From the sequence record OL631482.1: DNA of 64,000 nt; one strand, given 5' to 3'. The notes beneath the pieces are model-generated. The model saw only the letters and a program-made list of their open reading frames with translations. It was not told the DNA's origin and ran no database searches. Position 1 is the stretch's first letter; the number at the start of each line of letters is the position of its first letter. Source of the stretch: Escherichia phage ECML-359. Shown here piece by piece: positions 3,735-40,393 of the stretch. The position numbers and the translations under genes were made by a program.

Positions 3735-3763
3735 ATTATACCATGACCCCGTTGGTTTTTATT
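3735..3763 (-). promoter_or_regulatory. sigma70-type early promoter candidate with extended -10 (TGgTATAAT), weak -35
   Basis: Minus-strand reading catggTATAAT at 3735-3745, about 45 nt upstream of ATG 3686. Confidence 0.4.
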
Positions 3764-3956
3764 GCGCTTTAGCCGCTTTCCAGCCTTCATACATCATTGC
3801 GGCTGATATTAATATCGCTCCTGAGCAACTTGAATATTTGTGATTCCAAAACCAGTTCAGAAAAACTTCGTCATCAATGCCTTGAGCTATCATATTTTCA
3901 AAGAACTGGCGACGAGATTCAGCAATTCGTTGCGATAATTTAGATTCAGGATTCAT
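3759..3956 (-). CDS. hypothetical protein (65 aa)
   Basis: ORF track. Confidence 0.45.
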   Translation of the reverse strand: MNPESKLSQRIAESRRQFFENMIAQGIDDEVFLNWFWNHKYSSCSGAILISAAMMYEGWKAAKAQ

Positions 3957-4181
3957 TTAAATTTTCCAGTTACCGTTTTCATCAATAAATTCAATCCAGT
4001 CATTTACTGACCACTTAGTTGTATCGCCTTTTGGAGCAGAATTTAAAGCGTATAATCCTTGTTTAAAAAGCATTCGTTTGATATTCATGTTTTCCTCAGC
4101 TGTAACGATAGCACTCGTTTGATTTACGTTTTGCAACAAGATGAGAAGTATTATAATCCAAATCATCCTCAACGTATACAT
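3957..4181 (-). CDS. hypothetical small protein (start uncertain; overlaps 4096..4389)
   Basis: ORF track; hydrophobic N-terminus may be an out-of-frame artefact; internal Met near 4088 possible. Confidence 0.35.
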   Translation of the reverse strand: MYTLRMIWIIILLILLQNVNQTSAIVTAEENMNIKRMLFKQGLYALNSAPKGDTTKWSVNDWIEFIDENGNWKI

Positions 4182-4389
4182 CTTTTTTCAACTGACGAAC
4201 TTCTTTACGCAGTTGACGATTCATCTCATTCTTGACTTCTGAATCAACGCCACGCATACGCTTCCATTTGTCTGAACGAAAGATATTTTCTTCAACTTGT
4301 TCCTGACTTACACCATCAGGCGCCTGACGACGCCCTGAATAATAAAAATCTTTTACAGACAATTCTTTACGACGGATAGTTTTACCCAT
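4096..4389 (-). CDS. hypothetical basic protein (97 aa)
   Basis: ORF track; Lys/Arg-rich. Confidence 0.45.
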   Translation of the reverse strand: MGKTIRRKELSVKDFYYSGRRQAPDGVSQEQVEENIFRSDKWKRMRGVDSEVKNEMNRQLRKEVRQLKKDVYVEDDLDYNTSHLVAKRKSNECYRYS

Positions 4390-4391
4390 AG

Positions 4392-4646
4392 TTACCTCAA
4401 CAGTTTGTATCCAATAAGATTTTTAATGTACTGGATATCTTTGACATCCAAATCCAACTTAAGGTCTTTCAGACGGTCGCACAGGGTCAAAAAGGTTACA
4501 TGCTTCCAATTCTTCACTGGGCAGCAATAAGTCTTAGGACCATTTGCAATTTCAATATTCTTATCAGTGACGGTGAGAAAAATTAGGCGCTCATCATCCA
4601 GATTAAGGGTAATGATATTTTTCATTGAGTGTAATTTCAGACTCAT
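4392..4646 (-). CDS. hypothetical protein (84 aa)
   Basis: ORF track. Confidence 0.5.
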   Translation of the reverse strand: MSLKLHSMKNIITLNLDDERLIFLTVTDKNIEIANGPKTYCCPVKNWKHVTFLTLCDRLKDLKLDLDVKDIQYIKNLIGYKLLR

Positions 4647-4819
4647 AATTTAATTTCCTTAGCTATCGAACAAAACACTCCACGGTCACAAATCATTTTA
4701 ATACCAAGGTCAATTATGGTATACCACACATCCAGGCTAGATATTTCAGTTACTAAAACAGCTTTGCCGTTGATTGAATAATACTGGTTGACTTTAATTT
4801 CTTTATCTTCAATAACCAT
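4643..4819 (-). CDS. hypothetical small protein (58 aa)
   Basis: ATG at 4819 directly after promoter cassette with GAGGAAAAC SD; stop overlaps next ATG (ATGA); not in track. Confidence 0.35.
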   Translation of the reverse strand: MVIEDKEIKVNQYYSINGKAVLVTEISSLDVWYTIIDLGIKMICDRGVFCSIAKEIKL

Positions 4820-4887
4820 TTTGTTTTCCTCATCAGTAGTTGATGGGATAATGATACACCGTTCAAAGGGGCTTGTACACCCCTTTT

Positions 4888-5205
4888 TTAATCTTCAATT
4901 AAGTCCTGGTCGTACCCCAGGGATATCAGTTTTGTTTTAAAGGCAGGAATATTTGTCATTTTTTCATCATTGACAAAAATCACTGGGTAACGAATGTTAA
5001 GGGTAGGATATCCAGCACGCTTAGCCAAAGACACGATTAAAGGCCTGTCATAAGCGATTTCAGAGCCTTGTTTGTTAAGGACTGAATAGAATGTATAAGG
5101 AAGGTTTAAGGAGCCCAGAAGGCTCCTGACGTGCATACAACCAGGGCATCGACCGACTTCTTCGGGGATACCATAGATTTCAATCTTAGTCGAGTTTTGG
5201 CCCAC
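4888..5205 (-). CDS. glutaredoxin/NrdH-like redoxin
   Basis: CPGC dithiol motif near N-terminus; sits next to nrdG/nrdD as T4 nrdH does. Confidence 0.55.
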   Translation of the reverse strand: MGQNSTKIEIYGIPEEVGRCPGCMHVRSLLGSLNLPYTFYSVLNKQGSEIAYDRPLIVSLAKRAGYPTLNIRYPVIFVNDEKMTNIPAFKTKLISLGYDQDLIED

Positions 5206-5485
5206 AGGAAATCACTCCTTGGTAGTTCCAGGTTTTAATAACTTCTTCATCGCTGGCGGTTGCATACGGGACATAAATCTGAATAAGGAAACCTGTGTCA
5301 TCGAAAGAGAAATAAACCGTCGGTTTGATTCCATGAATCTCAGATAGAGCATAGATATCTTTAAGGTCTTCTTCTTTATCAGCAAAGAATTTCGGGTCCA
5401 GGTCACAGTCGTGGAAGTACCATTCATCACCGAACTTGTCCCACGCGGTCCAATTAGTAGCTACATATTCTTCAAAACGTTTCAT
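5186..5485 (-). CDS. hypothetical protein (99 aa)
   Basis: ORF track. Confidence 0.5.
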   Translation of the reverse strand: MKRFEEYVATNWTAWDKFGDEWYFHDCDLDPKFFADKEEDLKDIYALSEIHGIKPTVYFSFDDTGFLIQIYVPYATASDEEVIKTWNYQGVISCGPKLD

Positions 5486-5721
5486 TCTTTCACCTTCATC
5501 ATTTTAGCAATAACACTATGCACAGCCTGGATTCGTTTGTCGAACTCAGACCCTTCGAGGCCCTTTTCAGTACTCAGGGCACCAATCATCACAAACAGCA
5601 ATCCAAATGGGATAACCAGGATTAAAAGGCACACAATAAACAGGACAAATGTAATATTGGCCAGGATATCAGAAACAGCATTACGAAATTTATTCATATT
5701 TACCCTTAATTGATTAACCAA
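5482..5721 (-). CDS. hypothetical membrane protein (79 aa)
   Basis: Long hydrophobic segment ILANITFVLFIVCLLILVIPFGLLFVMIGAL. Confidence 0.5.
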   Translation of the reverse strand: MVNQLRVNMNKFRNAVSDILANITFVLFIVCLLILVIPFGLLFVMIGALSTEKGLEGSEFDKRIQAVHSVIAKMMKVKE

Positions 5722-5811
5722 GCATTGATAAGCACTAAACTATACTGCGAATAAAATTCTGGACCAAAATGAAAAATCATATCATTTATAGTATCCATAA
5801 TATAATTAAAT

Positions 5812-6282
5812 TTAATCATGTTTCCACACCCCATTGGTATTTGACCAAAGTCGCTGATTATCTGACCCTCGCCACAGTTTTTTGGTCGGAAGATTTTTCT
5901 CATACTTCCCATCAATAATAACATCAACATATTTAAGCATTTCTAGTTGTTTAATATCTTCAAACTTATATCCTGTCCACATCCAAATGCTTTTATTTGG
6001 ATAAAGATTTTTAACAGTTTGAACCACAGAGTGAATAACATCTCGGTTATCAGGATAGAGAGGGTCTCCTCCAGTTATAGTTAATCCTTCTATATAATCA
6101 TTATTCAAACATTCAATTAATTGTTCTAGTGTTTCACCAGTGAATGGAATACCATTTCTAGCGTTCCATGTTGATTTATTATAACACCCTTCACATTTAT
6201 GCAAACAACCTGTAACGAAAAGAACGACCCTGCAACCAGGGCCATTAATAAAATCACAAGGATAAATTCTATCATAATTCAT
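5812..6282 (-). CDS. nrdG: anaerobic ribonucleotide reductase activating protein (radical SAM)
   Basis: 156 aa; CLHKCEGC radical-SAM cysteine cluster; adjacent to nrdD. Confidence 0.9.
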   Translation of the reverse strand: MNYDRIYPCDFINGPGCRVVLFVTGCLHKCEGCYNKSTWNARNGIPFTGETLEQLIECLNNDYIEGLTITGGDPLYPDNRDVIHSVVQTVKNLYPNKSIWMWTGYKFEDIKQLEMLKYVDVIIDGKYEKNLPTKKLWRGSDNQRLWSNTNGVWKHD

Positions 6283-8096
6283 TGGTGTTTAACCCTATGC
6301 ATGATTTCTTTATTTTTGCCGAGATTAAATCCGCGTTCGTTCGGATTTCCCAAATAACCGCAAGTTCTTCTTATTGTGTTCATCTTTTTAGGGTCAGTTT
6401 CTCCACAAATAGAACAAACAAATCCGTTTTCAGTAGGAGTCATTTCATGGGTACTTCCACACGTAAAACATTTATCTACTGGCATGTTAACACCAAAATA
6501 ATCTAAATGTTGCGCGGCATAATCCCATACAGCCTCAAGACCTTTTAGGTTATTTTTCATATCAGGAAGTTCAACATAAGAAATGTGACCACCTGTCGCA
6601 ATGAAATGATATGGTGCTTCACGAGAAATCTTTTCAAACGGAGTGATATTTTCTTCTACTGAAACATGGAAACTGTTAGTGTACCATCCTTTATCGGTAA
6701 CATCTTTTACACTTCCATATTTTTCAGTATCAAGTTTACAGAAGCGATAACAAAGGTTTTCAGCAGGAGTAGAATACAAGCTAAAAGCAAAACCGGTTCT
6801 TTCAGTCCACTGCTTAAGACGAGCATTCATTTTAGTCAAAATTTCTTGTCCAATATCACGACCGACAAGAATATTCAATTCGTGAATACCAATGTATCCC
6901 AAAGACACTGAACTTCTACCGTTTTTAAATAACTCAATTATATCATCATCGGGTTTAAGACGAACCCCGAATGCACCTTCTTGGTAAAGAATAGGAGCAA
7001 CAGTCGCTTTAACTCCTTTTAAGGAATTAATTCTACACATCAAAGCTTCAAAACACAAATCCATTCGCTCATTGAACAATTCGATAAATTTCTGTTCATT
7101 GAACTGTGTTCCAATATAAGAATCTAACGCAATGCGAGGAAGATTCAGTGTTACAACGCCAAGATTATTACGTCCATCAAGAATTTCATTGCCAGTCGAA
7201 TCTTTCCATAAGCTCAAGAAACTACGGCAACCCATTGGAGAAACAGGAATAGATGAACCGGTGATAGCTTTGTTATTCTTAACTGAAATAATATCAGGAT
7301 ACATCCTTTTGCTTGCACACTCTAGAGCAAGCTGCTTAATATCATAGTTCGGGTCGTCTTTATAAAGATTAACACCTTCTTCAACGAACATAACAAGTTT
7401 AGGGAAAATAGGAGTTATCCCATCGCGACCAAGGCCTTTAATACGATTTTTCAGAATTGCTTTCTGAATCATTCGTTCAGTCCAGTCAGTTCCCGTGCCA
7501 AACGTAATTGTCACAAAAGGCGTTTGCCCATTTGAACTAAAGAGCGTATTTACTTCATATTCATAAGCTTGGAATGCATCGTATACGTCTTTTTCTGTTT
7601 TAGATTGGGCATAATTCAATGCATCAGTGATTTGCCATTTTTCTGCATCTTCAATATGTTTTGCGTATGTACGTTTAACATAAGGAGAAAATACTTTGTC
7701 TACATTAGCAAAAGTCGTTCCGCCATATTGGTGAGAAGCAACCTGTGCAGTAATTTGTGCCATAATTGCAGTAGCAACACCGATTGATTTAGGAGTTTCA
7801 ATCTGTGCATTACCAAGCTTAAATCCGTTCTCAAGCATTCCTTTTAAATCTACTAAACAGCAATTAGTAAATGGAAGAGCAGGGGAATAATCAATATCAT
7901 GGAAATGAATAATTCCACTTTCATGTGCTTTCATAATAAAAGACGCGACCATATTTTTGGCAATGTGTTTAGATACAATACCAGCCATAAGGTCCCGTTG
8001 AGTTGGAAAAACACGAGAATCTTTATTAGCATTCTCGTTTAAAAGGTCTTTATTAGTTTTATGAATCAATCCTTCAATTTCGTTTTCAATTGTCAT
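6279..8096 (-). CDS. nrdD: anaerobic ribonucleoside-triphosphate reductase (class III)
   Basis: 605 aa; C-terminal glycyl-radical motif RRTCGYLG and CxxC zinc ribbon; continuous ORF with no intron. Confidence 0.95.
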   Translation of the reverse strand: MTIENEIEGLIHKTNKDLLNENANKDSRVFPTQRDLMAGIVSKHIAKNMVASFIMKAHESGIIHFHDIDYSPALPFTNCCLVDLKGMLENGFKLGNAQIETPKSIGVATAIMAQITAQVASHQYGGTTFANVDKVFSPYVKRTYAKHIEDAEKWQITDALNYAQSKTEKDVYDAFQAYEYEVNTLFSSNGQTPFVTITFGTGTDWTERMIQKAILKNRIKGLGRDGITPIFPKLVMFVEEGVNLYKDDPNYDIKQLALECASKRMYPDIISVKNNKAITGSSIPVSPMGCRSFLSLWKDSTGNEILDGRNNLGVVTLNLPRIALDSYIGTQFNEQKFIELFNERMDLCFEALMCRINSLKGVKATVAPILYQEGAFGVRLKPDDDIIELFKNGRSSVSLGYIGIHELNILVGRDIGQEILTKMNARLKQWTERTGFAFSLYSTPAENLCYRFCKLDTEKYGSVKDVTDKGWYTNSFHVSVEENITPFEKISREAPYHFIATGGHISYVELPDMKNNLKGLEAVWDYAAQHLDYFGVNMPVDKCFTCGSTHEMTPTENGFVCSICGETDPKKMNTIRRTCGYLGNPNERGFNLGKNKEIMHRVKHQ

Positions 8097-8566
8097 TTTA
8101 AACTCTTTCTAAGCTGCTTCTTAAATGAAGCCATTAATTGTGTTTTGGTGTCAGATTCATTATAAGTCATACCATTCAAAAGCATTTCCCGAATCATTTC
8201 TTCTTTCCCCAGACGACCGAACTCTTTGGCTTTGTCTGTTACAAAATTGGGGTGAATATTGTTTTCGGTATAATCAGATTTCAGATAGACAAGCAAACTC
8301 TCTAACCATTCCAGGTAGTCAACATCGCGACTTTTTAGACCTGAACGGCTGAACTTATGCTTCATTTGTCCTTCTGTTCCATTGCACAGATTGCATAGTA
8401 ACCCGCGAACCTTACCAGCTTTTGGCCCGTTCAATTCGTGGTCATGGTCAAGATGGTTGGCCTGAACATCGGTGTCCAAATCACGGTGGCAAATTGGACA
8501 CTTACCAGCTTGTGCATCATAAAGTTTTTGTTTTTCTTCTTTGTATAATTTGCCAGTCAACAACAT
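8093..8566 (-). CDS. 49: endonuclease VII (Holliday junction resolvase)
   Basis: 157 aa; CPICHRDL...ANHLDHDHELNGPKAGKVRGLLCNLCN matches T4 gp49 as recalled. Confidence 0.9.
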   Translation of the reverse strand: MLLTGKLYKEEKQKLYDAQAGKCPICHRDLDTDVQANHLDHDHELNGPKAGKVRGLLCNLCNGTEGQMKHKFSRSGLKSRDVDYLEWLESLLVYLKSDYTENNIHPNFVTDKAKEFGRLGKEEMIREMLLNGMTYNESDTKTQLMASFKKQLRKSLK

Positions 8567-8777
8567 AATAAACCCTTACCATTATTAGATAAGGGTATTT
8601 ATTAAATCTTATAAAACGCGCGGTGTAACCGTTTAAATTGACGAATCATCTTTTTAGTAGGACGAGTATACAATCCCACACAGGTGGCCATAAACTGGTC
8701 AGTAGGGCTTCCTTTGATAAGAAGTTTCCAGACCTTGTCACCGTTTAACTTTTCGGTATAGACTAATGCAGTTTTCA

Positions 8778-9050
8778 TTAAACAATCCTAAAACAAGGAT
8801 AATGGCATTCAACGTTACCATTATCAATTATCATATACTCAGTGATACAGGTCCATGACCCTTCAATTTCTATGGTATCAAAAAGGTATTCATCTGTTTC
8901 AACAACGTCCCAAACATTACATTCAACGTCAGGGTCAAAACGTTGTCTTAACGCATGGATAACATCACCATTTTTAAATCCTGCGTCTTGAAGCTCTTTC
9001 ATAAAACCTGATTGAGCAGCCGCATGAATATTAACAATTTCTAAAAACAT
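8778..9050 (-). CDS. hypothetical protein (90 aa)
   Basis: ORF track. Confidence 0.5.
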   Translation of the reverse strand: MFLEIVNIHAAAQSGFMKELQDAGFKNGDVIHALRQRFDPDVECNVWDVVETDEYLFDTIEIEGSWTCITEYMIIDNGNVECHYPCFRIV

Positions 9051-9224
9051 TAAAAGGCCTCATCAGCAAAGCGAAGTTGAGCTTCAAGCCAATGGATATA
9101 ATCCGCCGCGGCAAAAATTAAAGCAGATTCTTCATCAGGTAACTTACGGGAATCCGACAGTTCATAAAGTGATTTTTCAATCAGGCGGCCTTTATGACGG
9201 CCAATTTCAATTTTGGTACTCATA
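9051..9224 (-). CDS. hypothetical small protein (57 aa)
   Basis: Own translation from ATG 9224; stop abuts next ATG; not in track. Confidence 0.3.
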
Positions 9225-9340
9225 TCCAAACTCCATATCGATTAAATCATTGTTTGAAGGTTCATTATAATCTATTTCGGAATCGTTGTAAACAGGTTCC
9301 TCTGGCTCGACAGTTTCCCATCGAGCGGTGTACCATGGTT

Positions 9341-10575: not shown

Positions 10576-10576
10576 A

Positions 10577-15312: not shown

Positions 15313-15429
15313 TTTATTCTCCGTTTGTTTATTTGGTAACTCAGTATGGAATCATTATGCATCATGACCATCTGGTTGTACACATATACTAAATAAAAAT
15401 ACTTAATAAAACCATAAAGGAGAAAGTTT

Positions 15430-16176
15430 ATGATTTTATCCGGAAGAACTGTTGATGAACTCAATGAAAAAGTCCAGGCTGCCTTGGCTAATAATTGGTA
15501 TTTGTTTGGTTCTACTATGGTGTTGCCGAATACCCCTACAGATAGCAAAGAGCGTTTTTTCCAAACTATGTCCAGCTCGGAAACTCAGATACCGGGCCCG
15601 CCTGGGCCAAAAGGAGACCCGGGTGTACCAGGACCAAAAGGAGACCCAGGCGGGGATGGAAAGTCTTCTTATCAGATATGGCTTGACTTGGGAAATACAG
15701 GAACTGTTGATGATTTTTTAACTGATACAGCAGGAAAGAGGGAAAAATCCGAGGTGTTTTGGAGTGGTATAAACGTTCTATTAACTAATGGTGTGACGTC
15801 AAACATAATTAGTGTTTTAAAGGGGATTCCGCCGACTGCAGGGACTCTATCTCCGTTTTTTAGAACCACTGATGATAAGTTGTGGCCATATAACCAAGAC
15901 AGAAGCCTAATGTTTAAACTCAACCTTATTGGTAATTTTACAGGAGCCTCGCAAGCTCGAAGTATAACATTAAATTTCGTTGGAACCAACGGAAACACTT
16001 ATATACAGAATCGTCCGGAAAATGCTACAGATATTTTGTCTTTTACAACGTTCTTTAGCATTGATAAAGATGGGGCAATGGCTACCAATGGTACAGCTAT
16101 AACTGTTATGCCAAATGGCGGCAACTTTACAATAACATCTGCATTGTTAGTAGCCGAACAAACAGTGACTTCATAA
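15430..16176 (+). CDS. collagen-repeat protein (248 aa), opposite orientation to surrounding genes
   Basis: Eight Gly-X-Y triplets GPPGPKGDPGVPGPKGDPGGDGKS at residues about 56-79; AAAGGAG SD before ATG 15430; hairpin terminator follows stop. Confidence 0.65.
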   Translation: MILSGRTVDELNEKVQAALANNWYLFGSTMVLPNTPTDSKERFFQTMSSSETQIPGPPGPKGDPGVPGPKGDPGGDGKSSYQIWLDLGNTGTVDDFLTDTAGKREKSEVFWSGINVLLTNGVTSNIISVLKGIPPTAGTLSPFFRTTDDKLWPYNQDRSLMFKLNLIGNFTGASQARSITLNFVGTNGNTYIQNRPENATDILSFTTFFSIDKDGAMATNGTAITVMPNGGNFTITSALLVAEQTVTS

Positions 16177-16183
16177 ACAAAAA

Positions 16184-16199
16184 AGGGCCGTATGGCCCT
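16184..16199. terminator. bidirectional hairpin terminator between convergent genes
   Basis: GGGCCgtatGGCCC with A-run upstream on plus (T-run on minus). Confidence 0.5.
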
Positions 16200-16394
16200 T
16201 AGATTGCACTCCAAAAATTATGGAATCTTATAGTATTGATAGCCCAGTTAACAAACATGCGAGTTTGCTTGGGAGTTGGTTTGCATATGTACTTATTGTT
16301 GATTCGTCTGCCAGTTTCCCGACAGACTGCTTCGAGATACCAGCGCCGACCTTTATTAGGTCTTCCATACGATAAGAAGACCTTGATTTCCTGG

Positions 16395-19694: not shown

Positions 19695-19722
19695 GAAAAA
19701 AGGTCCACCCGAAGGCAGACCT
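19695..19722 (-). terminator. rho-independent terminator (8-bp stem, UUCG loop, U-run)
   Basis: Minus-strand GGTCTGCCttcgGGTGGACC followed by TTTTTT. Confidence 0.6.
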
Positions 19723-19728
19723 TTTGAA

Positions 19729-23258: not shown

Positions 23259-23717
23259 TTAGATATAAATCACTTTTGTGCTAATTTTTCCTTCCAGACG
23301 ATTAGAGTTAACAAACGCCATACGACAACACATGGTCGGAGACTTCCCAGGAATAGCGGGGTTAACTGTCATTCCTAACCACAGGTTCTTGTCTGTAATT
23401 TCCAGACGAAGTGGACGGTAGTTCACATTCGGGTCAATTTGTGCTTCAACTTCCGGGAGTGGTTTCATCTCCAAGAATTCAACGATTTCTTTTACATGTG
23501 GTGTGATTTTTCCAAACAAGTCAAAAACATATTGTTCATCAATTTCACGTTGGATTGCACGGTCCAACAGGTGCGGACTGTACTTAATGAAGAATGCTTC
23601 AAGGCCTGCTTCTTTACAAGCCTTGTTGATAGCATTATTAATTTTGAGGAACTCCGTTTCAAAAATGCGACGAAGTTTATTGCGGCGAATGTAAACACTT
23701 GAATCGATAGTAGTCAT
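23259..23717 (-). CDS. regB: site-specific RNA endonuclease RegB
   Basis: From internal Met: MTTIDSSVYIRRNKLRR...HLLDRAIQREIDE...RPLRLEITDKNLWLG matches T4 RegB as recalled. Confidence 0.85.
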   Translation of the reverse strand: MTTIDSSVYIRRNKLRRIFETEFLKINNAINKACKEAGLEAFFIKYSPHLLDRAIQREIDEQYVFDLFGKITPHVKEIVEFLEMKPLPEVEAQIDPNVNYRPLRLEITDKNLWLGMTVNPAIPGKSPTMCCRMAFVNSNRLEGKISTKVIYI

Positions 23718-23773
23718 GATTATCTCCTTTTGTTTGATGGGATAATCATAACTCATTTCAATCTGCTTGTACA

Positions 23774-25388: not shown

Positions 25389-25552
25389 AATTGTCTCTTT
25401 TTAAGTTGTGGGGCCGTTCCTTGGCACATAATTCATCCGTGTATCCGTATGTAAACCCCTTACCGCACTTGGGCTCGACCTTATTACAGGTAGGGAAAGG
25501 TCCATCACTCAGAGGACGCGACGTTCATGAGGAGAGGGCCGGCTTGCCTTTA

Positions 25553-25852
25553 TTAGAAAGAACCAGAACCTTTAATTGTGTTCTGGCGACCTTTATTTTC
25601 TAATTCAGAATGGTCGATTTCGTATGCTTGTGCTACACCAAAGGCCTTTTTAACTTTAGCTAAAGAACCTTTAGATGTAACAATATTAAAAGTATTGCCT
25701 TTAGTAAAATCAACCAAATCCACTTGTACACCCTGTTTACCGAGGCTTGCTACAATAGCATCAACATATTGTTGGTCTAAAGTACCTTGGACTCCAATTT
25801 GGAATGCTTTAGGGGCTTTGGCTTCTGTGATAAATTCTTGATAAGTTTTCAT
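25553..25852 (-). CDS. internal-protein-like virion protein with capsid-targeting N-terminus
   Basis: Starts MKTYQEFITEA, the T4 IP capsid-targeting sequence; early promoter cassette upstream. Confidence 0.65.
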   Translation of the reverse strand: MKTYQEFITEAKAPKAFQIGVQGTLDQQYVDAIVASLGKQGVQVDLVDFTKGNTFNIVTSKGSLAKVKKAFGVAQAYEIDHSELENKGRQNTIKGSGSF

Positions 25853-25908: not shown

Positions 25909-26172
25909 TTATGCTTTACCGCCAGAAACAATACCAAAGGTCTCAAAGTCCCATTCAATATCATCAACATCAACTTTCTTACCAGCAACAACAAATGCGA
26001 TTTCACGGCGTTTTGCATAGGTGACAATTTCTTTACCATCACCGCCAAAGAAAGAATACCCATTACGCTTCATGGTGCCAAAGTCTTCAGCATCGCCAGC
26101 AAAGGCGCGAACTTTAAAAGCACCAGTAGGAGCTTTGGCAGATTCAGTAATAAATTCTTGATAAGTTTTCAT
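25909..26172 (-). CDS. internal-protein-like virion protein with capsid-targeting N-terminus
   Basis: From internal Met: MKTYQEFITES...; mature part shares GDAEDF..(K/R)NGY motif with 39408..39707. Confidence 0.65.
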   Translation of the reverse strand: MKTYQEFITESAKAPTGAFKVRAFAGDAEDFGTMKRNGYSFFGGDGKEIVTYAKRREIAFVVAGKKVDVDDIEWDFETFGIVSGGKA

Positions 26173-26220
26173 TTTATATTCCATTGTTTGGTTGATAAAA
26201 TCATTATACAACCTTTTTAG

Positions 26221-34111: not shown

Positions 34112-34183
34112 GGTATTTCCTTCAGTTGGTTAATGTTTTATTATCCAGGGAACATACTATCATGTTCCCATTAAAGCACTAAT

Positions 34184-34489
34184 TTAGATTTTGTTTTCCT
34201 GCACACCATAGTAAAGTTCATCAGACACAATATCCAGGATGCGGCGAACATATTCATCATGGTATTGGCAGTCAAAATCAAATGCAACAGTAGTTTCCGC
34301 TTCACGAGTGAATTTAACTTGCACATTCAGGTGATTAACAACGTTAGTTAATTTATCAGTAAAGAACTCTTTTGCTACCGCCTGTTGGACTTGCACTTTA
34401 AACTTGGTGTTACGAATCATATTTTCAGCAGATGCGAAATTACCAGTTTTATCAAAGTCAACAAGCGCCAGGTTGATGATGAATTTCAT
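34184..34489 (-). CDS. hypothetical protein (101 aa)
   Basis: ORF track; promoter cassette upstream. Confidence 0.5.
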   Translation of the reverse strand: MKFIINLALVDFDKTGNFASAENMIRNTKFKVQVQQAVAKEFFTDKLTNVVNHLNVQVKFTREAETTVAFDFDCQYHDEYVRRILDIVSDELYYGVQENKI

Positions 34490-34572
34490 TTTATTCTCCA
34501 GTGTTTTATTTGGTAACTCAGTATGGAATCATTATGCCTTAAAGCAGGGGGCTTGTATACCCCCTTTTTGAA

Positions 34573-35004
34573 TTAAATTTCAAATTCTTTGCGGAAGTTG
34601 GAAGCATAAGACTGAACTGATGCTTTGTTGAATCCAAACTCACGCACAATCATATCAATAACAGCTCTGCGAGCAGCACCATTAGACATATTAACAGTTT
34701 TGAACATATCATAGCATAAATCTTTGTTGCTCATACCGGAGCGTTTAGGTGCCTTACGTTCAGCTTTAGGAGTAGGTTTAACTTCTGGTTTAACCTGTCC
34801 ATCATTCAGACCTTTAAAAATTTTACCTGCCAGAGTTGCCAGTTTAGCAGCTTCGCCACGAGTGATACCAAATACTGCCGGGTTAAATGAAATACCTTCA
34901 GCTGCCAGACGTTTGAAGAACATACGTGCTGCGGATTGTGCTTCAGCTTCAGAAGAGTTGTTTAATGCCAGCTTAACGTACTTAACCAGTTTTGAAGTTT
35001 TCAT
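34573..35004 (-). CDS. hypothetical protein, paralog of 35087..35512
   Basis: Shared C-terminal module NGAARRAVIDMIV...VQSYASNFRK. Confidence 0.55.
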   Translation of the reverse strand: MKTSKLVKYVKLALNNSSEAEAQSAARMFFKRLAAEGISFNPAVFGITRGEAAKLATLAGKIFKGLNDGQVKPEVKPTPKAERKAPKRSGMSNKDLCYDMFKTVNMSNGAARRAVIDMIVREFGFNKASVQSYASNFRKEFEI

Positions 35005-35045
35005 TTTATTCTCCAGTGTTTTATTTGGTAACTCAGTATGGGATA

Positions 35046-35074
35046 ATTATACACTATCCCACTTGGAAGTAAAA
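35046..35074 (-). promoter_or_regulatory. early promoter (-35 TTTTAC, 17 bp, -10 TATAAT) inside palindrome
   Basis: Minus-strand reading TTTTACttccaagtgggatagtgTATAAT, then conserved leader ...actgagttaccaaataaaacactggagaataaa. Confidence 0.5.
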
Positions 35075-35086
35075 CACTTTTCTCAA

Positions 35087-35512
35087 TTATTTTTGAGCTT
35101 TGCGGAAGTTGGAAGCATATGACTGAACAACAGTCTTTTTGATATCATGGGTGTTAACCAGAACATCAATCAGGGCGCGGCGAGCTGCACCATCTGCCAT
35201 ATCAATTTCTGCAAATGCCTGGAAGCAAATGTCACGAGCATTACCAGATTTGGACTGGATTTTTTCTTCTTTAACTTCTTCAATTGGGAATTCAATCATT
35301 TCAGCTTGGATTAATTCAATGATAGATTCTTTTGACTGTTTGGTGTTTACCTTCAGTTCAGAATTAAGGGACTTAGCGATGGCAACAATCTGGGTTGAAG
35401 TCAGATGAATAAGTGCATCTTCACGAATGCAGATTTCACATACTTCGTCGGCAACCATTTTGTTAGTGATGCGGGTAACAGAGAATGCAGAAGTCAGGGT
35501 CAGGAAGTTCAT
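35087..35512 (-). CDS. hypothetical protein, paralog of 34573..35004
   Basis: Start at MNFLTLT after cassette leader; C-terminal DGAARRALIDVLV...VQSYASNFRK. Confidence 0.55.
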   Translation of the reverse strand: MNFLTLTSAFSVTRITNKMVADEVCEICIREDALIHLTSTQIVAIAKSLNSELKVNTKQSKESIIELIQAEMIEFPIEEVKEEKIQSKSGNARDICFQAFAEIDMADGAARRALIDVLVNTHDIKKTVVQSYASNFRKAQK

Positions 35513-35618
35513 TTTATTTCTCCAAAGTTTTGTTTGATTCAGTGTGTAACTCAGTATGGAATCATTATGCATCCAGTCAATTCGGATGTACACTACTTTT
35601 TGAAGAAATATTAAAAAT

Positions 35619-35638
35619 AAACCCGCCGAAGCGGGTTT
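35619..35638 (-). terminator. rho-independent terminator
   Basis: Minus-strand AAACCCGCttcgGCGGGTTT followed by ATTTTTAATATTT. Confidence 0.55.
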
Positions 35639-35640
35639 GA

Positions 35641-36195
35641 TTAGTTCTTATAAAAGCGGAACGGATTTATATGAAAGGCGAGCATAGCCTTAGGGATTGG
35701 TCGGGACAGAAGACTCTTGAGCTTCCAGCCACAATAAACGCGCAGATAAAAGGTGATTCCACCGACCTTGAGATAAGGAACAGAAGCAAAAACACCCCAG
35801 GCATTATCCGTCCACATCCAGAGCCATCCGTGATGAGCTTTATCCGGGGAGCCGGATTCAACATCAGGATTACCTTTATAATGGAATTCTGAATTGCAAT
35901 CACGACCGAGCTTGTGGTAAGCAAAATTGTATGCTTTGTTTCGCCAGAGCCAGGCTACTCGTTGGAAGTAAACACCTAATGGCCATTTTCGGATTTTTGA
36001 CCAACGCTCGACATGACCCCGGTCACCATCAATCGGATTATCATAAGTCATCATCCAATCAAACCCGAACGGAAGTTTACCAGTCTTTTTATTATGGAAT
36101 GGAACTACAAATGGAGCCAGGATAACGGCCAGAATCATGGAGATAAAATCCAGTGGAACTAACAGAATCCAACTCAAATATTTTAACAGTTTCAT
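35641..36195 (-). CDS. hypothetical membrane-anchored protein (about 185 aa)
   Basis: Start at MKLLKYLSWILLVPLDFISMILAVILAPFVV (TM); Trp-rich. Confidence 0.5.
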   Translation of the reverse strand: MKLLKYLSWILLVPLDFISMILAVILAPFVVPFHNKKTGKLPFGFDWMMTYDNPIDGDRGHVERWSKIRKWPLGVYFQRVAWLWRNKAYNFAYHKLGRDCNSEFHYKGNPDVESGSPDKAHHGWLWMWTDNAWGVFASVPYLKVGGITFYLRVYCGWKLKSLLSRPIPKAMLAFHINPFRFYKN

Positions 36196-36284
36196 ACGTT
36201 TCTCTTTAGTTGATTTATAAAAAAGCCCCAACCTTTCGGAAGGGGCTATACCTTGTCGGGGTTCCACCTGCAAGGCAAGTGTTC

Positions 36285-36668
36285 TTATCCGCGAGCGAAT
36301 GCCATTGCGGCGCGTTCGTTGGCACGGTCGGTGATGTTCAAGAATTTATCACGAGCGATTTCGATTGGAGCGCCAACCCAGTCAGCAGCACCATTACCTG
36401 GAGACTGTTTAGGGCGAACCATATAAGTTGAAACTTTAGAACCGGCCAGTTTGGCACCTGGTGCCGCGGCATTTTTAACGTCTTTAGCTTTGATGCCAAA
36501 CCCAGTTACGATACCCCAAGAAACACCATTAACTGGTTTCTTGAACATAACACGGTCACCAATTGAAACACCGGCTTTTTCTGGAGCCACTAAAGAAAAT
36601 TTACCAGCTTCAGTCAGTACGGATTCGGTGATGGTATTGCGATTTAAAAATTCTGCATATGTAAGCAT
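36285..36668 (-). CDS. putative virion internal protein with capsid-targeting-like N-terminus
   Basis: Starts MLTYAEFLNRNTITE, resembling MKTYQEFIxE; consensus late promoter 32 nt upstream. Confidence 0.55.
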   Translation of the reverse strand: MLTYAEFLNRNTITESVLTEAGKFSLVAPEKAGVSIGDRVMFKKPVNGVSWGIVTGFGIKAKDVKNAAAPGAKLAGSKVSTYMVRPKQSPGNGAADWVGAPIEIARDKFLNITDRANERAAMAFARG

Positions 36669-36699
36669 TTTGTTTTTCCATTATTAGGGTTGTTGTTAA

Positions 36700-36707
36700 T
36701 ATTTATA
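36700..36707 (-). promoter_or_regulatory. T4-type late promoter TATAAATA
   Basis: Exact TATAAATA on minus strand 32 nt upstream of ATG 36668. Confidence 0.5.
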
Positions 36708-36901
36708 TTCCATAGTACCGGATGCACCATCCGCTCGGATTTCTCATACTACCGGACGCACCGTCCGCTCTGGAAAAACTCCGTTAAAAGGGTGCGCCGT
36801 TTCAGCTGTGGTAGTAAAGAACCAGAACACAGTAAAACTGTGGGAGGAACTATACTTCAGGGAACGTCAGTCCGACGACTTACCGGTAGCGACCCGGTTT
36901 C

Positions 36902-37141
36902 TCATTCAATTGTAATAGCTAATTTGACTTTAACAACCTTATAATTGGAATCAAGGTCATTGAATTCCATAAAATTTGTTGCTAATCTGCGAGTCGGGAA
37001 ACTTAGATATTTATTATGCTCAGGTGGAGCAGTTAATGCAAACCATGGGACTTGTTTATCATTTTCATCAAACTCATCAAAGCTATAAACCAGCTCGTTG
37101 TTGGTTATATCCATAACTGCATATGATTCACTAATAACCAT
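36902..37141 (-). CDS. hypothetical acidic protein (about 80 aa)
   Basis: Start at internal Met (37141) with GAGGAT SD so it does not overlap tRNA-Arg. Confidence 0.45.
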   Translation of the reverse strand: MVISESYAVMDITNNELVYSFDEFDENDKQVPWFALTAPPEHNKYLSFPTRRLATNFMEFNDLDSNYKVVKVKLAITIE

Positions 37142-37156
37142 AATATCCTCGGTAAT

Positions 37157-37233
37157 TGGTCGGGGTGGTGGGATTCTAACCCACAACCTACGGTTTAGAA
37201 GACCGTTGCTCTATACAATTGAGCTACACCCCG
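37157..37233 (-). tRNA. tRNA-Arg (anticodon UCU), CCA encoded
   Basis: Hand-folded cloverleaf: acceptor CGGGGTG/CACCCCG, D stem GCTC/GAGC, anticodon stem ACGGT/ACCGT, loop CTTCTAA, T stem GTGGG/CCCAC. Confidence 0.8.
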
Positions 37234-37235
37234 GG

Positions 37236-37309
37236 TGGCCCCATCCGGACTTGAACCGGAAACCTGCCAGTTATGAGCCGGATGCTCTAACCAATTGAGC
37301 TACAGGGCC
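37236..37309 (-). tRNA. tRNA with CAU anticodon (Met or Ile2)
   Basis: Hand-folded cloverleaf: D stem GCTC/GAGC, T stem TCCGG/CCGGA with TTCAAGT loop, anticodon loop CTCATAA; one anticodon-stem mismatch. Confidence 0.65.
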
Positions 37310-37314
37310 TAAAA

Positions 37315-37584
37315 TTAAATTACAAATCCAGCGGGAGCATTATCATCTTTAACCATATGCTGAATTGTATGATAAGTCATTTCTTCTGGTGCAACCAGAT
37401 AAGCCGCCGTATTAACCAACGGGATTAATTTGACTTTATTGAATGTTGAACAACCAATTGACATAAAGGTTTCACCTGTTGGATGCTGAATTTCACCAAA
37501 TTGGCACTCATACGAAATAGAGCAACGTTTGGTAGTGGTTGTCTTTGTTTTAGGGTCGTAAAAAGCTAATTTTAATACTAACAT
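37315..37584 (-). CDS. hypothetical protein (89 aa)
   Basis: ORF track. Confidence 0.45.
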   Translation of the reverse strand: MLVLKLAFYDPKTKTTTTKRCSISYECQFGEIQHPTGETFMSIGCSTFNKVKLIPLVNTAAYLVAPEEMTYHTIQHMVKDDNAPAGFVI

Positions 37585-37704
37585 AACACCTCAAGTAAAA
37601 TTAAGTAAAGTAAGTTTGATTAATAGCACATGCTATTATGAAAGGTTCTTTGAGGGAAGAACCTTTGGTAATAGAGGGTACTTATTAATAATAACGCGTT
37701 TTTG

Positions 37705-38187
37705 TTAAAGCATATCAAGCGCTTTAACAGATGGGATTTGGATTTCTTCTTCGATTATATATAGCTTAACATAAGAAATTACACGCATGAAATCGCCAGC
37801 ATATTCGCAAGCCATACCAAGGAGCTCAGTAAGGGCTTCATTCAGGTAGTATTCTTCATCATCGCCATTTAGCAATGCATCTAAATCTTCTACACCCAAA
37901 ACCTTACTTAAAAATTCATGGGTTAACTGACCAGATTTTACGCCAGATTCAATGTGGGCGATAACCAAGTGTTTAACCACATCCCATTTTGAATTACCAC
38001 ATTTGTTGTGGTTGTTGCAATGCGAACCATGGAAAAGTTCCAGGATATATTTGTACTGTTGGATTTCTTGTTCTTCTACGCCAAATACCGTTTGGGTTTT
38101 ATAATTATCACCATCATTTTCCCAGGTTTCAATTTCAATCACATAACCTTTAGGGATGGTCTGACCAAATTTGATATTCATAATCAA
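37705..38187 (-). CDS. hypothetical protein (160 aa)
   Basis: ORF track; HGSHCNNHNKCGNSKWD His/Cys cluster. Confidence 0.55.
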   Translation of the reverse strand: MIMNIKFGQTIPKGYVIEIETWENDGDNYKTQTVFGVEEQEIQQYKYILELFHGSHCNNHNKCGNSKWDVVKHLVIAHIESGVKSGQLTHEFLSKVLGVEDLDALLNGDDEEYYLNEALTELLGMACEYAGDFMRVISYVKLYIIEEEIQIPSVKALDML

Positions 38188-38612
38188 CCTTCATCAACAA
38201 TAGTATGTGTATTAGCATTAACAATCTGCCACCAGTCAAAACGGTTGGAACCATAACAAGGCTTCTTCTCGTTTTCTTTAATGATATCACGCAGTTCATC
38301 TTCAGTCGCAGCTTTTGCAATTAAGTCAGCATAACCGCCACGAGGATAATAGCTATCACCTGCAAAGAGCAAAAAGTTTGTTTTGATATTCTTGAATTCT
38401 TCAAGTGTAATAACTGTTCCATTGGGTTGAACAATATCCACATAACTATACCCTAATTCCTGGGCTTTATCTACCGCCTCAAGCAGGGTGTCGTGTGCCC
38501 ACCCAATTTGACAATCTGGTTTTTCAGATGGGTTTGCCTGATAATCCGCATACACTTTATACATTTTACTCACCTTTGGAGATTTTATCCATAACGAAAG
38601 AGATTGAACCAA
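38184..38612 (-). CDS. hypothetical protein (142 aa)
   Basis: ORF track. Confidence 0.5.
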   Translation of the reverse strand: MVQSLSLWIKSPKVSKMYKVYADYQANPSEKPDCQIGWAHDTLLEAVDKAQELGYSYVDIVQPNGTVITLEEFKNIKTNFLLFAGDSYYPRGGYADLIAKAATEDELRDIIKENEKKPCYGSNRFDWWQIVNANTHTIVDEG

Positions 38613-38751
38613 TTAAAAATGCAACTACTAAAGAGATTATATTCTCAGAAGTTGAAAGCATATTCAACATAAAGCCAGCAAACATGCTAAAACCAAAAGC
38701 GGTAACAGCAACAAGGGCAGTAACATTTCTAATTAATTCGCAACGTTTCAT
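38566..38751 (-). CDS. hypothetical small membrane protein (61 aa)
   Basis: Two hydrophobic segments; directly downstream of promoter cassette. Confidence 0.4.
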   Translation of the reverse strand: MKRCELIRNVTALVAVTAFGFSMFAGFMLNMLSTSENIISLVVAFLIGSISFVMDKISKGE

Positions 38752-38779
38752 TTTATTCTCCTCAGTAGTTGATGGGATA

Positions 38780-38808
38780 ATTATACGCTATCCCATTCAA
38801 AAGTACAC
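38780..38808 (-). promoter_or_regulatory. early promoter candidate (-35 GTGTAC, 17 bp, -10 TATAAT) inside palindrome
   Basis: Minus-strand reading GTGTACttttgaatgggatagcgTATAAT, then leader tatcccatcaactactgaggagaataaa. Confidence 0.45.
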
Positions 38809-39063
38809 TTATTTTTTAGGGATACGATAGTAACGCATCTCAACATCTTTCTGCTTGTGCCACTTTTTGATAAGGTCTTCAGAACCTTTAATGGTAACGA
38901 TGTCATAGCGACCATCATGCGATACTTCAGCACTTAACTGCATGAAGTTGTCTAGTGAACGGCGCAATTCCTCATTAGAAAAACTACCACGCGGGGAACC
39001 AACATAAGCAAACTCAACTTTTGCATCTGCGGCTTCGTTAATAAATTCTTGATAAGTTTTCAT
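38809..39063 (-). CDS. internal-protein-like virion protein with capsid-targeting N-terminus
   Basis: Starts MKTYQEFINEAA. Confidence 0.65.
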   Translation of the reverse strand: MKTYQEFINEAADAKVEFAYVGSPRGSFSNEELRRSLDNFMQLSAEVSHDGRYDIVTIKGSEDLIKKWHKQKDVEMRYYRIPKK

Positions 39064-39088
39064 GTTGTCTCCAGTAGTTGATGAGATA

Positions 39089-39118
39089 ATTATACTGCAG
39101 TTATCCCATCGCGTATAC
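39089..39118 (-). promoter_or_regulatory. early promoter candidate (-35 GTATAC, 18 bp, -10 TATAAT)
   Basis: Minus-strand reading GTATACgcgatgggataactgcagTATAAT, then leader tatctcatcaactactggagacaac. Confidence 0.45.
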
Positions 39119-39119
39119 T

Positions 39120-39362
39120 TTATTTTAAGTCTTCCAGACGTTTTTTCATCTTGGTGCCGTTCTTAGCAATCTCGCCTGCATCAGAACAAAGAGCAAGGAG
39201 AGCTTTAACTTTACCCTGGTCGCCTTTAAAAGATGATGCATCTACTGAATCAGCAAGTTCTTTGATACGTGCAAACAGGCGCTCTGCTTCAGCAAGGGCT
39301 TGACCAAGTTTAACTTCCATACCATGGGAAGATTCTGTTATAAATGTTTGATAAGTTTTCAT
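39120..39362 (-). CDS. internal-protein-like virion protein with capsid-targeting N-terminus
   Basis: Starts MKTYQTFITESS. Confidence 0.65.
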   Translation of the reverse strand: MKTYQTFITESSHGMEVKLGQALAEAERLFARIKELADSVDASSFKGDQGKVKALLALCSDAGEIAKNGTKMKKRLEDLK

Positions 39363-39384
39363 GTTGTCTCCAAGCCATAAAAAG

Positions 39385-39400
39385 GGGATAATTATCCCCT
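39385..39400. terminator. perfect 16-bp palindrome GGGGATAATTATCCCC flanked by A4/T4, terminator-like
   Basis: Looks like a collapsed copy of the promoter-cassette palindrome lacking a separate -10. Confidence 0.45.
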
Positions 39401-39407
39401 TTTGTTA

Positions 39408-39707
39408 TTACATCTTACTACCACGAATTACGCCATAAGCAGCGAAGTCGTCAGTGATATTTTTAGGAGTGTTTTTACCCGTTTCAATGAAAGCGATGCT
39501 TGATTTCTGACTAAAAGAGGTAATTTTGTTATAGTTAGAGTCAAGGAAGGTATAACCATTTTTACGCAGCTGGTCAAAGTCTTCAGCGTCGCCTTTACCT
39601 TTGAAGTCAACCCATTTGTAGGTGTTTTTCTTCTGAAGGCCCAGAGGCCAGGTTTTTGCTTCTGCCAGGTAATTGTTTTCTACCAAAAATTCATGAAAAG
39701 TTTGCAT
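39408..39707 (-). CDS. internal-protein-like virion protein with capsid-targeting N-terminus
   Basis: Starts MQTFHEFLVEN; mature part paralogous to 25909..26172. Confidence 0.65.
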   Translation of the reverse strand: MQTFHEFLVENNYLAEAKTWPLGLQKKNTYKWVDFKGKGDAEDFDQLRKNGYTFLDSNYNKITSFSQKSSIAFIETGKNTPKNITDDFAAYGVIRGSKM

Positions 39708-39715
39708 TTGAAATC

Positions 39716-39988
39716 CTATTTAAGATAAATTGCGTATTTTTTATAACCAGCCGTCTCATGGCGAAGACCCTTGTCATTGGCAAAACGCTCAATGTTATTA
39801 ATTTGGTTCTGGTCAAGTTCTGAAATGCCAAACGCGAAAAAGTTGCGTTTGTTGCCAATTGTTATATGGTCAGTTAAGTCAATGCTATACAGGTGATTGA
39901 TATTGTCAATCATAGCTTTGACTGCTTTACTAATTTTTACTTCTTCATTTAGTTGTGACTCGTTGAAAAATTCATTGAAAGTTTTCAT
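39716..39988 (-). CDS. internal-protein-like virion protein with capsid-targeting N-terminus
   Basis: Starts MKTFNEFFNES. Confidence 0.6.
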   Translation of the reverse strand: MKTFNEFFNESQLNEEVKISKAVKAMIDNINHLYSIDLTDHITIGNKRNFFAFGISELDQNQINNIERFANDKGLRHETAGYKKYAIYLK

Positions 39989-39996
39989 AAGAAACC

Positions 39997-40329
39997 TTAT
40001 TTATAAAGTTTTGCTAGTTCTTTACGTCCGCGAGCAGACATAATAAATTGTTCATCGCCAATTTTAAAATAAGCCATACCGCCGTCAACAGCGATACCAA
40101 TTTCTTTAGTACCTTCTTTGCCTTTCCACTTGCCACCAGATTTCAGGACAGCTTCAACTGCAGCTTTGGAATATTTGGACGTTTGAAAACGTTCATTACC
40201 AATCTGAAAGAAAACACCATCTGCATTTTTGGTTAAACCAAATTTCAGGGAGCCTTCACTATCATCAATTGATTTGGTCTCATTGATGGCGGATTCGGCT
40301 AAAAACTCGTTGTAAGTTTTGATGTTCAT
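39997..40329 (-). CDS. internal-protein-like virion protein with capsid-targeting-like N-terminus
   Basis: Starts MNIKTYNEFLAES; Gly/Lys-rich mature part. Confidence 0.55.
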   Translation of the reverse strand: MNIKTYNEFLAESAINETKSIDDSEGSLKFGLTKNADGVFFQIGNERFQTSKYSKAAVEAVLKSGGKWKGKEGTKEIGIAVDGGMAYFKIGDEQFIMSARGRKELAKLYK

Positions 40330-40364
40330 ATTAACTCCGTTTGTTCATTCGTTGGTGTAGGAAC

Positions 40365-40393
40365 ATAATACTGCACCTACACTTATTTGTACA
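40365..40393 (-). promoter_or_regulatory. early promoter (-35 TGTACA, 17 bp, -10 TATTAT) inside palindrome
   Basis: Minus-strand reading TGTACAaataagtgtaggtgcagTATTAT; arms GTGTAGG/CCTACAC flank the -10. Confidence 0.5.

Follow-up and report, generated by a model that had tools for sequence, protein, structure and literature searches.

Early-gene cassettes of promoter, hairpin and leader in Escherichia phage ECML-359, probably of the promoter early stem-loop kind

The early region and the junctions between its genes

We analysed a stretch of 64,000 nucleotides from Escherichia phage ECML-359 (sequence record OL631482.1), referred to here as the window, in which a short module of promoter, leader and, in many copies, a hairpin recurs between small minus-strand genes. 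By comparison with its relatives the window belongs to a Gaprivervirus, that is, a VR7/SP18-like T4-type phage (Straboviridae, Tevenvirinae). It is 97% identical to Escherichia phage EAWsc9 over long stretches and 90-97% identical to VR7, SP18, DK-13, CJ20 and the TH series, all of the same genus. The minus-strand early/middle region occupies bases 1 to about 43,700, with the gene order 47, 55, nrdG/D, 49, nrdC, tk, regB, denV, e, two tRNAs, internal-protein genes, 57B, 1, 3, 2 and 4, and is followed by plus-strand baseplate genes. Gene 49 (endonuclease VII) is thus encoded within the window, as is the endoribonuclease gene regB (23259-23717, minus strand), identified by the annotation of relatives.

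The module, hereafter the cassette, is present in the early region as 18 discrete minus-strand copies of 55-85 bp, all at gene starts. Its order is constant: an A/T-rich stretch, a -35, a spacer, a -10, a predicted +1 A, a short leader, a GGAG Shine-Dalgarno (SD) sequence and an ATG. The cassette fills the gap from one small gene's stop codon to the next one's start codon, and the -35 in most copies abuts or overlaps the upstream stop (TAA-GTGTAC, TAG-TGTACA). All 18 copies have a -35 of the form G(T/G/A)TAC(A), its third position being G (GTGTAC) in most, a spacer of 17 nt (rarely 16 or 18) and a -10 resembling TATAAT, CATAAT, TACTAT or TATTAT. A TGn motif is usually lacking; GTG or GCG adjoins the -10 on its upstream side. 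The upstream 22 nt are 71% A+T against a background of 61%, a value exceeding all of 2000 random sets, and this stretch often consists of the final Lys codons of the upstream gene. On the 3' side of the -10 the consensus is (T/G)AT(C/T)CCAT followed by either CAACTACTGAGGAG (leader type 1) or ACTGAGTTACCAAATA...GGAG (leader type 2), with leader lengths of 14-45 nt. At 19 of 23 sites the predicted +1, seven bases past the -10, is an A.

A discrete, strand-specific family

Copies were collected by listing every gap between minus-strand genes and aligning the candidate sites on their -10. The type 1 leader 24-mer has three matches with at most two mismatches, where shuffled sequences give an expectation of 0, and looser variants lie at 23745, 25878 and 39089. 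The type 2 20-mer has four exact matches (0.01 expected) and a variant at 35564. An unbiased repeat search recovered the same families (D1-D8). We then scanned the window with a sequence-only profile built from the 18 copies, as a preliminary description of this DNA had proposed, and the copies stood apart with scores of 26.8-42.1 bits. One further weak match is intragenic (4145-4187, 17.2 bits); the next best, at 6.5 bits, is noise, and neither the plus strand nor the late region (43.8-64 kb) gave anything above noise. These scores indicate a family that is both discrete and strand-specific. A generic sigma-70 scan performed at chance level (64 sites vs 62.2, and 61 vs 58.1, in shuffles), so the signal lies in the specific extended module and not in promoter-likeness. 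In the window together with ten loci from nine relatives, the profile identifies 183 copies. When Rfam was run over the whole window, only two tRNAs reached the gathering score and no family covered the cassettes.

The preliminary description had spoken of more than fifteen copies, and indeed each position that it listed holds one, including those given for the two leader types; its architecture of -35, spacer of about 17 nt, TATAAT-like -10, SD and ATG holds for the entire set. Missing from its list were the copies at 9264, 12164 and 26203. It also began its series at 3735, where a -10, a hairpin and a third type of leader are present and a recognisable -35 is absent.

Position and stability of the hairpins

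A stem-loop of some placement occurs in 12 of the 18 copies, either around the -10, around the -35 or as a canonical terminator upstream of the promoter. The three placements never occur together in one cassette, which suggests that they do the same job. The order first proposed, with the hairpin preceding the -35, applies to the two copies that have upstream terminators; elsewhere it fails, and the commonest arrangement is an inverted repeat that brackets the -10 (8 of 18 copies, and also the related junctions at 3735 and 34154). In these the 5' arm lies in the spacer and the 3' arm spans about -6 to +4, with folding energies of -9.9 to -17.3 kcal/mol. The eight cassettes give z scores of -3.25 to -5.9, none of 200 shuffles folding as well. 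At least 6 perfect pairs were found at 8 sites, as opposed to a mean of 1.4 and a maximum of 6 in 200 shuffles. A census of the early region found 65 perfect stems of at least 7 bp against 36 expected, and about one-third of the intergenic ones bracket a -10.

The eight copies with a hairpin around the -10 are as follows, all on the minus strand like the others described below. P14765 (14729-14796), 5' of the nrdC.8 orthologue, has a type 2 leader with the exact RegB consensus GGAGAATAAAA (see below) adjoining the ATG, and its arms are GTATGGGGA/TTCCCATAC (-15.7 kcal/mol, z -3.25). P25878 (25853-25908), 5' of an internal-protein gene, has the 10-bp stem TGATGGGATA/TATCCCATCA (-17.2 kcal/mol, z -5.9), and P26664 (26638-26693), 5' of denV, has the stem TGATAGGGT/ACCCTATCA (z -5.1) and the leader CAACTACGGAG. 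In P29199 (29172-29230) the stem GTGGGAC(T)AT/AT(G)GTCCCAC surrounds the -10 CACAAT (z -4.2). P35046 (35005-35086) combines TGGGATA/TATCCCA (z -3.5) with a type 2 leader and the exact RegB consensus, which is also present in the type 1 leader of P38780 (38752-38808), 5' of the trna.4 orthologue, whose arms are ATGGGATA/TATCCCAT (z -4.4). P39089 (39064-39119) precedes another internal-protein gene and has the arms GATGGGATAA/TTATCTCATC with one G·U pair (z -3.9). Finally, P40365 (40330-40393) consists of a TAG stop, GTGTAC and TATTAT, the last bracketed by GTGTAGG/CCTACAC (z -4.0).

Two copies have the hairpin around the -35. These are P4851 (4820-4887), 5' of the 55.6 orthologue, with GTGTAC, TATCAT ending at 4851, a type 1 leader, the arms AAAGGGG/CCCCTTT at 4865-4886 and a score of 41.5 bits; and P34531 (34490-34572), with a type 2 leader, the exact RegB consensus and the arms GGGGG/CCCCC at 34546-34565. 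Canonical terminators were found at four junctions, of which two belong to cassettes: that at 19698-19725 lies upstream of P19656 (19629-19728), a promoter of the form GTTTAC-N17-TACTAT with a type 1 leader 5' of the mobD.5 orthologue, and that at 35619-35638 lies upstream of P35564 (35513-35640), with GTGTAC-N17-CATAAT, a variant type 2 leader and 41.6 bits. The other two are at 929-955 and 16183-16200.

In the remaining six copies no strong hairpin was found. P9264 (9224-9340; GTTTAC-N17-TATAAT at 9264-9293, 28.4 bits) has a divergent leader and no hairpin. P12164 (12137-12194; GTTTAC-N17-TATAAT, 28.6 bits), 5' of the nrdC.4 orthologue, has weak hairpins only, and P15354 (15313-15392; type 2 leader, exact RegB consensus, 42.1 bits) has a weak bulged one. 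P23745 (23718-23776), 5' of regB, comprises a TAG stop, GTGTAC, TATGAT, a variant type 1 leader and the SD GGAG, again with no hairpin; the same is true of P26203 (26185-26232; 33.2 bits), 5' of an internal-protein gene, whose -35 lies within the end of denV. P30631 (30583-30660; GTATAC-N18-TACTAT, 26.8 bits) has a long leader that contains a small hairpin of its own as well as the exact RegB consensus.

Additionally, two related junctions share a third type of leader, (A/T)GGATAATAAAA (repeat family D17). That at 3735 (3687-3758, minus strand), 5' of the 55.2 orthologue, has a TATAAT bracketed by GGGGTCAT/ATGGCCCC with one U·G pair (z -2.9), and no MotA box was found there. That at 34154 (34112-34183, minus strand) is a middle-type promoter, TGCTTTA-N12-TAGTAT, with GGGAACAT/ATGTTCCC around its -10 (z -2.8). 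Since the 34154 copy has a MotA box, hairpins that bracket the -10 are not confined to early promoters. MotA boxes, (T/C)GCTT(T/C)A located 11-13 nt 5' of the -10 in place of a -35, were also found at 2565, 14178 and 904. A degenerate cassette lies at 39363-39407 (minus strand); there the perfect hairpin AAAAGGGGATAATTATCCCCTTTT, whose arms belong to the GGGATA/TATCCC family, precedes the usual leader GGAGACAACATG. Neither a -10 loop nor a -35 is left, and the borders of this cassette coincide with indels in relatives; it looks like a decayed or recombined copy that now serves as a terminator.

Leaders, the RegB consensus and copying

The strong cleavage consensus of RegB/S1 is GG*AGRAYARAA (Uzan and Miller 2010, PMC3014915). 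Exact occurrences of GGAGRAYARAA number six in the window, all on the minus strand, where 0.2 are expected, and all six (14738, 15322, 30593, 34499, 35014 and 38761) are the last 11 nt before a cassette ATG. The leader 3' end given above for P14765 is such a match, with the SD GGAG embedded in it. The other 12 of the 18 leaders match the consensus partly, with GGAG in an A-rich context. As in T4, regB itself lies behind its own cassette with a GGAG SD; the promoter of T4 regB is described as a typical early one (PMC3014915). Because of this match to the RegB/S1 consensus, part of the conservation of the leaders is probably functional.

Function of this kind has to be set against the extent of the identity. 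Identical leaders of 40-52 nt sit before unrelated genes, and the genes that follow the five type 2 leaders are unrelated to each other apart from one paralogous pair. P34531 and P35046 share a 52-nt stretch at 96% identity that extends from the -10 into the downstream gene as far as its second codon; upstream of the -10 they are wholly different. Leader type 2 is nearly confined to Gaprivervirus genomes, each of which has it at 9-13 places, and the type 1 cassette of trna.4 recurs with 81-84% identity in hundreds of Tequatrovirus genomes, beside internal-protein genes. Lineage-restricted identical sequence before unrelated genes requires copying rather than convergence. The earlier proposal that near-identical leaders reflect exchange is to this extent borne out, with the qualification that the RegB/S1 consensus accounts for part of the likeness.

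Cassettes and gene-content borders

It had also been proposed that cassettes cluster at the borders of variable genes. We aligned bases 1-44,500 to 12 relatives, chained the matches and took as an event any gap of at least 40 nt in either genome, which gave 120 distinct breakpoint clusters. Cassette intervals of 81 nt make up 4.3% of the sequence and contain 15 of the 120 clusters, about three times the random expectation (p=2e-4), and the cassette cores (2.4% of the sequence) contain 7 where 2.9 are expected (p=0.026). Thus, breakpoints coincide with cassettes more often than with random positions. However, this is not so when other gene junctions are the standard: a breakpoint was found at 13 of 21 cassette junctions and at 40 of 75 others (Fisher p=0.62). 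Two narrower comparisons gave p=0.10 (early-type copies and events of at least 200 nt; 11/16 cassette junctions vs 34/80 others) and p=0.28 (against only those other junctions whose spacer is 30 nt or longer; 13/21 vs 13/16). Breakpoints generally fall at gene junctions, so the association is mostly that of any gene boundary, and the proposed clustering is not supported as a property specific to cassettes.

Individual events nevertheless lie within cassettes. Four relatives lose homology to the window at 35050, within the -10 of P35046; they keep the type 2 leader and the downstream gene, and their promoter half and upstream gene are different. In VR7 only the 57-bp block 34484-34541, at P34531, aligns, and the genes on both flanks have been replaced. 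Position 15383, the -35 edge of P15354, is the left end of an indel that holds the plus-strand gene 15430-16176, and P30631 shows a homology break at its -10 in one relative. At the internal-protein loci, breaks fall in the shared leader and the MKTYQEFI targeting sequence (26140, 39017, 39034, 39362 and 39407). Cassettes are occasional crossover points and probably do not chiefly decide the sites of gene-content change.

These results bear on the simplest alternative account of the repeats, according to which they have a function only and play no part in shuffling: each would be an optimised promoter joined to a leader for RegB, S1 and the ribosome, and gene content would change at any boundary. 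The junction-level comparisons are what this account predicts, as is the fact that 105 of the 120 breakpoint clusters fall outside cassettes, and most of the conserved blocks (UP-like stretch, -35, -10, +1 and RegB consensus) do have a known function. Nonetheless, the identity before unrelated genes includes positions with no assigned function, one leader type is restricted to a single genus in which it occupies many places, and the excess of breakpoints in cassette cores, among them that at 35050, together with the VR7 block, is not accounted for. We regard this account as possible, though on balance doubtful.

Selection on pairing around the -10

Among 88 distinct cassette sequences from the window and its relatives, 50 can form at least 6 bp around the -10. 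Their arms belong to at least seven families, namely GATGGGATA/TATCCCATC, GATAGGGT/ACCCTATC, GTGGGAC/GTCCCAC, GTGTAGG/CCTACAC, GTATGGG/CCCATAC, TGGAAT/ATTCCA and CAGTAT/ATACTG. Orthologues show corresponding changes on the two sides of a stem. That of P29199 reads ...ACCAT/ATGGT... in two relatives, ...ACTAT/ATAGT... in a third and ...ACTAT/ATGGT... in the window, so that a C-G pair and a U-A pair among relatives are connected via U·G in the window. Similarly, the stem of the trna.4 promoter given above for the window is GATAGGGTA/TACCCTATC in T4-like phages, with the G·U intermediate GATGGGGTA/TACCCTATC found on a contig from IMG/VR. A scan of IMG/VR with the trna.4 leader yielded 4 loci, too few for a formal count of pairs, and these were used as orthologues; covariation was counted with custom scripts.

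The 3' arm is nearly fixed relative to the -10 and the 5' arm floats, which is why no pairing columns are common to all copies when they are aligned on the -10; the spacer appears to evolve towards complementarity with the start region. T4 has comparable structures (NC_000866, 60500-66500), with repeats around the -10 5' of ipII (a 14-bp stem, TCCTAGAATTGTGA/TCACAATTCTAGGA), ipIII (GAATTGTGA/TCACAATT) and denV, where an outer arm CTCCTGTAG pairs with CTACAGGAG, the SD. Compensatory changes between copies and between orthologues, across genera, thus indicate, at the level of sequence, that the stem around the -10 is selected for pairing. Transition-type mismatches among distinct stems are, on the sense strand, G·T in 11 cases and A·C in 1, and this bias means that the hairpin most likely forms in the sense strand, i.e. 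in RNA.

If the hairpins formed instead in DNA, as cruciforms or single-strand hairpins, they might draw nucleases such as endonuclease VII and so act as recombination hot spots. The enzyme is encoded in the window and a few breaks do lie at a -10. Yet a G·T on the sense strand is an A·C on the other, which would weaken a cruciform, cassettes with a hairpin around the -10 are not visibly more broken than others, and enrichment at the level of junctions is absent; we therefore consider this very unlikely. It is less likely still that a dimeric protein of phage or host, such as a repressor of early promoters, binds the inverted repeat as a DNA operator. The repeat overlaps the -10, where a repressor would act, and how T4 early promoters are shut off is, according to the literature, not understood (PMC2988021, PMC3014915). 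A protein site would, however, conserve sequence, whereas here the arm families differ in sequence and keep their complementarity; moreover, the distance of the 5' arm from the -10 floats, the G·T mismatches are on one strand only, and the repeat occurs in fewer than half of the promoters. Autonomous, self-inserting elements resembling miniature inverted-repeat transposable elements (MITEs) would be dispersed in many near-identical copies, as the cassettes are, but the copies lie in a single orientation exactly between stop and ATG and in register with the gene that follows, the repeat search showed neither terminal repeats nor target duplications, and no transposase is associated, which leaves this idea next to no credibility. 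The operator, cruciform and MITE readings were rejected on the grounds given.

Comparison with known systems and interpretation

Promoter early stem-loops (PeSLs) were defined in RB49/phi1 (Arbiol et al. 2010, PMC2839356). They are described there as having an SD and a start codon at the 3' end, as enriched in hyperplastic regions and as associated with indels; mini-circle formation and, in reporter assays, activity as promoters and terminators are also reported. Comeau et al. (2014, PMC4122927) extended them to T4/PST and KVP40/nt-1, with middle-promoter versions (PmSL). The ECML-359 cassettes agree with PeSLs in the A/T-rich stretch, the sigma-70-like boxes, a stem-loop of variable position that often lies over the -10, the SD and ATG, the intergenic site, the many copies in early or hyperplastic regions and some indels or replacements that end within cassettes. 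They differ in the -35, which is mostly GTGTAC(A) here, TTGACA in RB49 and TTTAC(A/T) in T4/PST; in arms of the GGGATA/TATCCC type rather than polyG/polyC; in having two or three discrete leader families; and in breakpoints that are not enriched over other junctions. In terms of sequence-level features, all of which are present, the cassettes are an element of the PeSL kind, already known and seen here in another genus. In the literature on the VR7 group we found no paper describing these cassettes or the early promoters of VR7.

The cassettes also resemble T4 early promoters (Hinton 2010, PMC2988021), with which they share an extended consensus, an A-rich upstream stretch, a GTTTAC-type -35 and orthologous positions at regB, denV, the internal-protein genes and trna.4; the T4 promoters of ipII, ipIII and denV have repeats around the -10, as in the window. 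Whereas the T4 consensus comprises UP, -35, TGn and -10, the promoters of the window, known here from sequence, mostly have GTGTAC and usually lack TGn. Compared with the RegB/S1 sites of T4, those of the window, the six exact 11-mers at the ATG and the 12 partial ones, are predictions. Like rho-independent terminators, the hairpins contain G+C and directly follow a stop codon, but those that bracket a -10 have no U tract.

Taken together, we think it highly probable that the repeats are early-gene regulatory cassettes of the published PeSL kind, combining a sigma-70 promoter, a hairpin, a leader and an SD within a RegB site. Under this model, the UP-like stretch, GTGTAC(A)/GTTTAC(A), 17-nt spacer, TATAAT and +1 A about 7 nt downstream would make up a strong promoter for host sigma-70. 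Each cassette would carry one hairpin, usually formed by a spacer segment and a segment from -6 to about +4, with the -10 in its loop, followed by an unstructured leader of 14-45 nt and a GGAG SD inside GGAGAATAAAA, an optimal site for cleavage by RegB/S1. RNA polymerase would begin within the 3' arm, and the cassette's own transcript would lack the hairpin. Since the predicted start is inside the 3' arm, the structure would exist only in RNA reading through from upstream, where it might act as an attenuator, a protector of 3' ends or a barrier to decay, insulating neighbouring cistrons. RegB would cut the leaders and thereby shut off translation of early messages, and copies of the cassette would have spread by copying and recombination.

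Several points weigh against this interpretation. Promoter activity, start sites and timing are predicted from the consensus and from orthology to T4, and the -10 of P29199 is weak. The absence of a strong hairpin from six of the 18 copies makes it non-essential. In a terminator scan none of the hairpins that bracket a -10 was called, and what follows them is not a U tract but CAACUAC or ACUGAG; any role of theirs as terminators is non-canonical. Predicted accessibility of the SD showed no consistent difference between own and read-through transcripts. The strand bias of the mismatches corresponds to few events, roughly eight independent ones for G·T against one for A·C.

A further-reaching idea is that the repeat around the -10 is a selected RNA element of read-through transcripts only, by which promoter-initiated and read-through copies of a message are treated differently. 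This might operate by attenuation without a U tract, by protection from 5'-to-3' decay after cuts by RegB or RNase G, or by masking of the SD as in T4 denV. We rate it as improbable; if true, the hairpin around the -10 may also have a part in rapidly shutting off early expression, a process still unexplained.

The analysis maps the early transcription units completely and with coordinates in one Gaprivervirus genome. It goes beyond the PeSL papers, as far as the parts cited here extend, in the evidence that the stem bracketing the -10 is selected for pairing, its changes being compensatory across genera and its wobbles lying on the sense strand; in the likely identity of the conserved leader end as an optimal RegB site; and in the use of gene junctions as the null, against which cassettes do not stand out as gene-content borders in the window. 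This junction-controlled result tempers the idea of cassettes driving modular shuffling, and selection on pairing makes an RNA role of the hairpin directly testable.

Other features of the region

The sequence AAGGATG(A/G) or GGGATGA recurs directly 5' of the -10 on the minus strand at 2565, 14178, 904 and 12164, that is, at MotA-box-type junctions (genes 55 and nrdC.6 and the a-gt.2 region) and at P12164. The plus-strand gene at 15430-16176, which lies within the minus-strand early region, encodes a collagen-like repeat followed by a tail needle knob domain of the Sf6 type (PF16532, E = 4e-32). The window, EAWsc9, TH40, TH54 and DK-13 have the gene, and the stretch is missing or replaced in TH41, TH44, TH55, TH22, TH57, TH15 and VR7. 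Four small minus-strand genes (25553-25852, 25909-26184, 38809-39063 and 39120-39362) share the N-terminus MKTYQEFI, the capsid-targeting leader of T4-type internal proteins, and relatives vary in the set of these genes that they carry.

Two non-coding stretches on the minus strand are unusually G+C-rich, one between vs.8 and an internal-protein gene (25389-25552) and one beside the tRNA genes (36669-36901); neither has an Rfam match, and their folding energy is ordinary (z about -0.5). The latter holds a tandem pair of GAGCGGA(C/T)GGTGC(G/A)TCCGGTA hairpins. The tRNA genes themselves, Arg(TCT) and Met/Ile2(CAT), are neighbours at 37157-37309 (minus strand), and the surrounding 36.2-37.7 kb is among the stretches that vary most between relatives, yet is free of cassettes.

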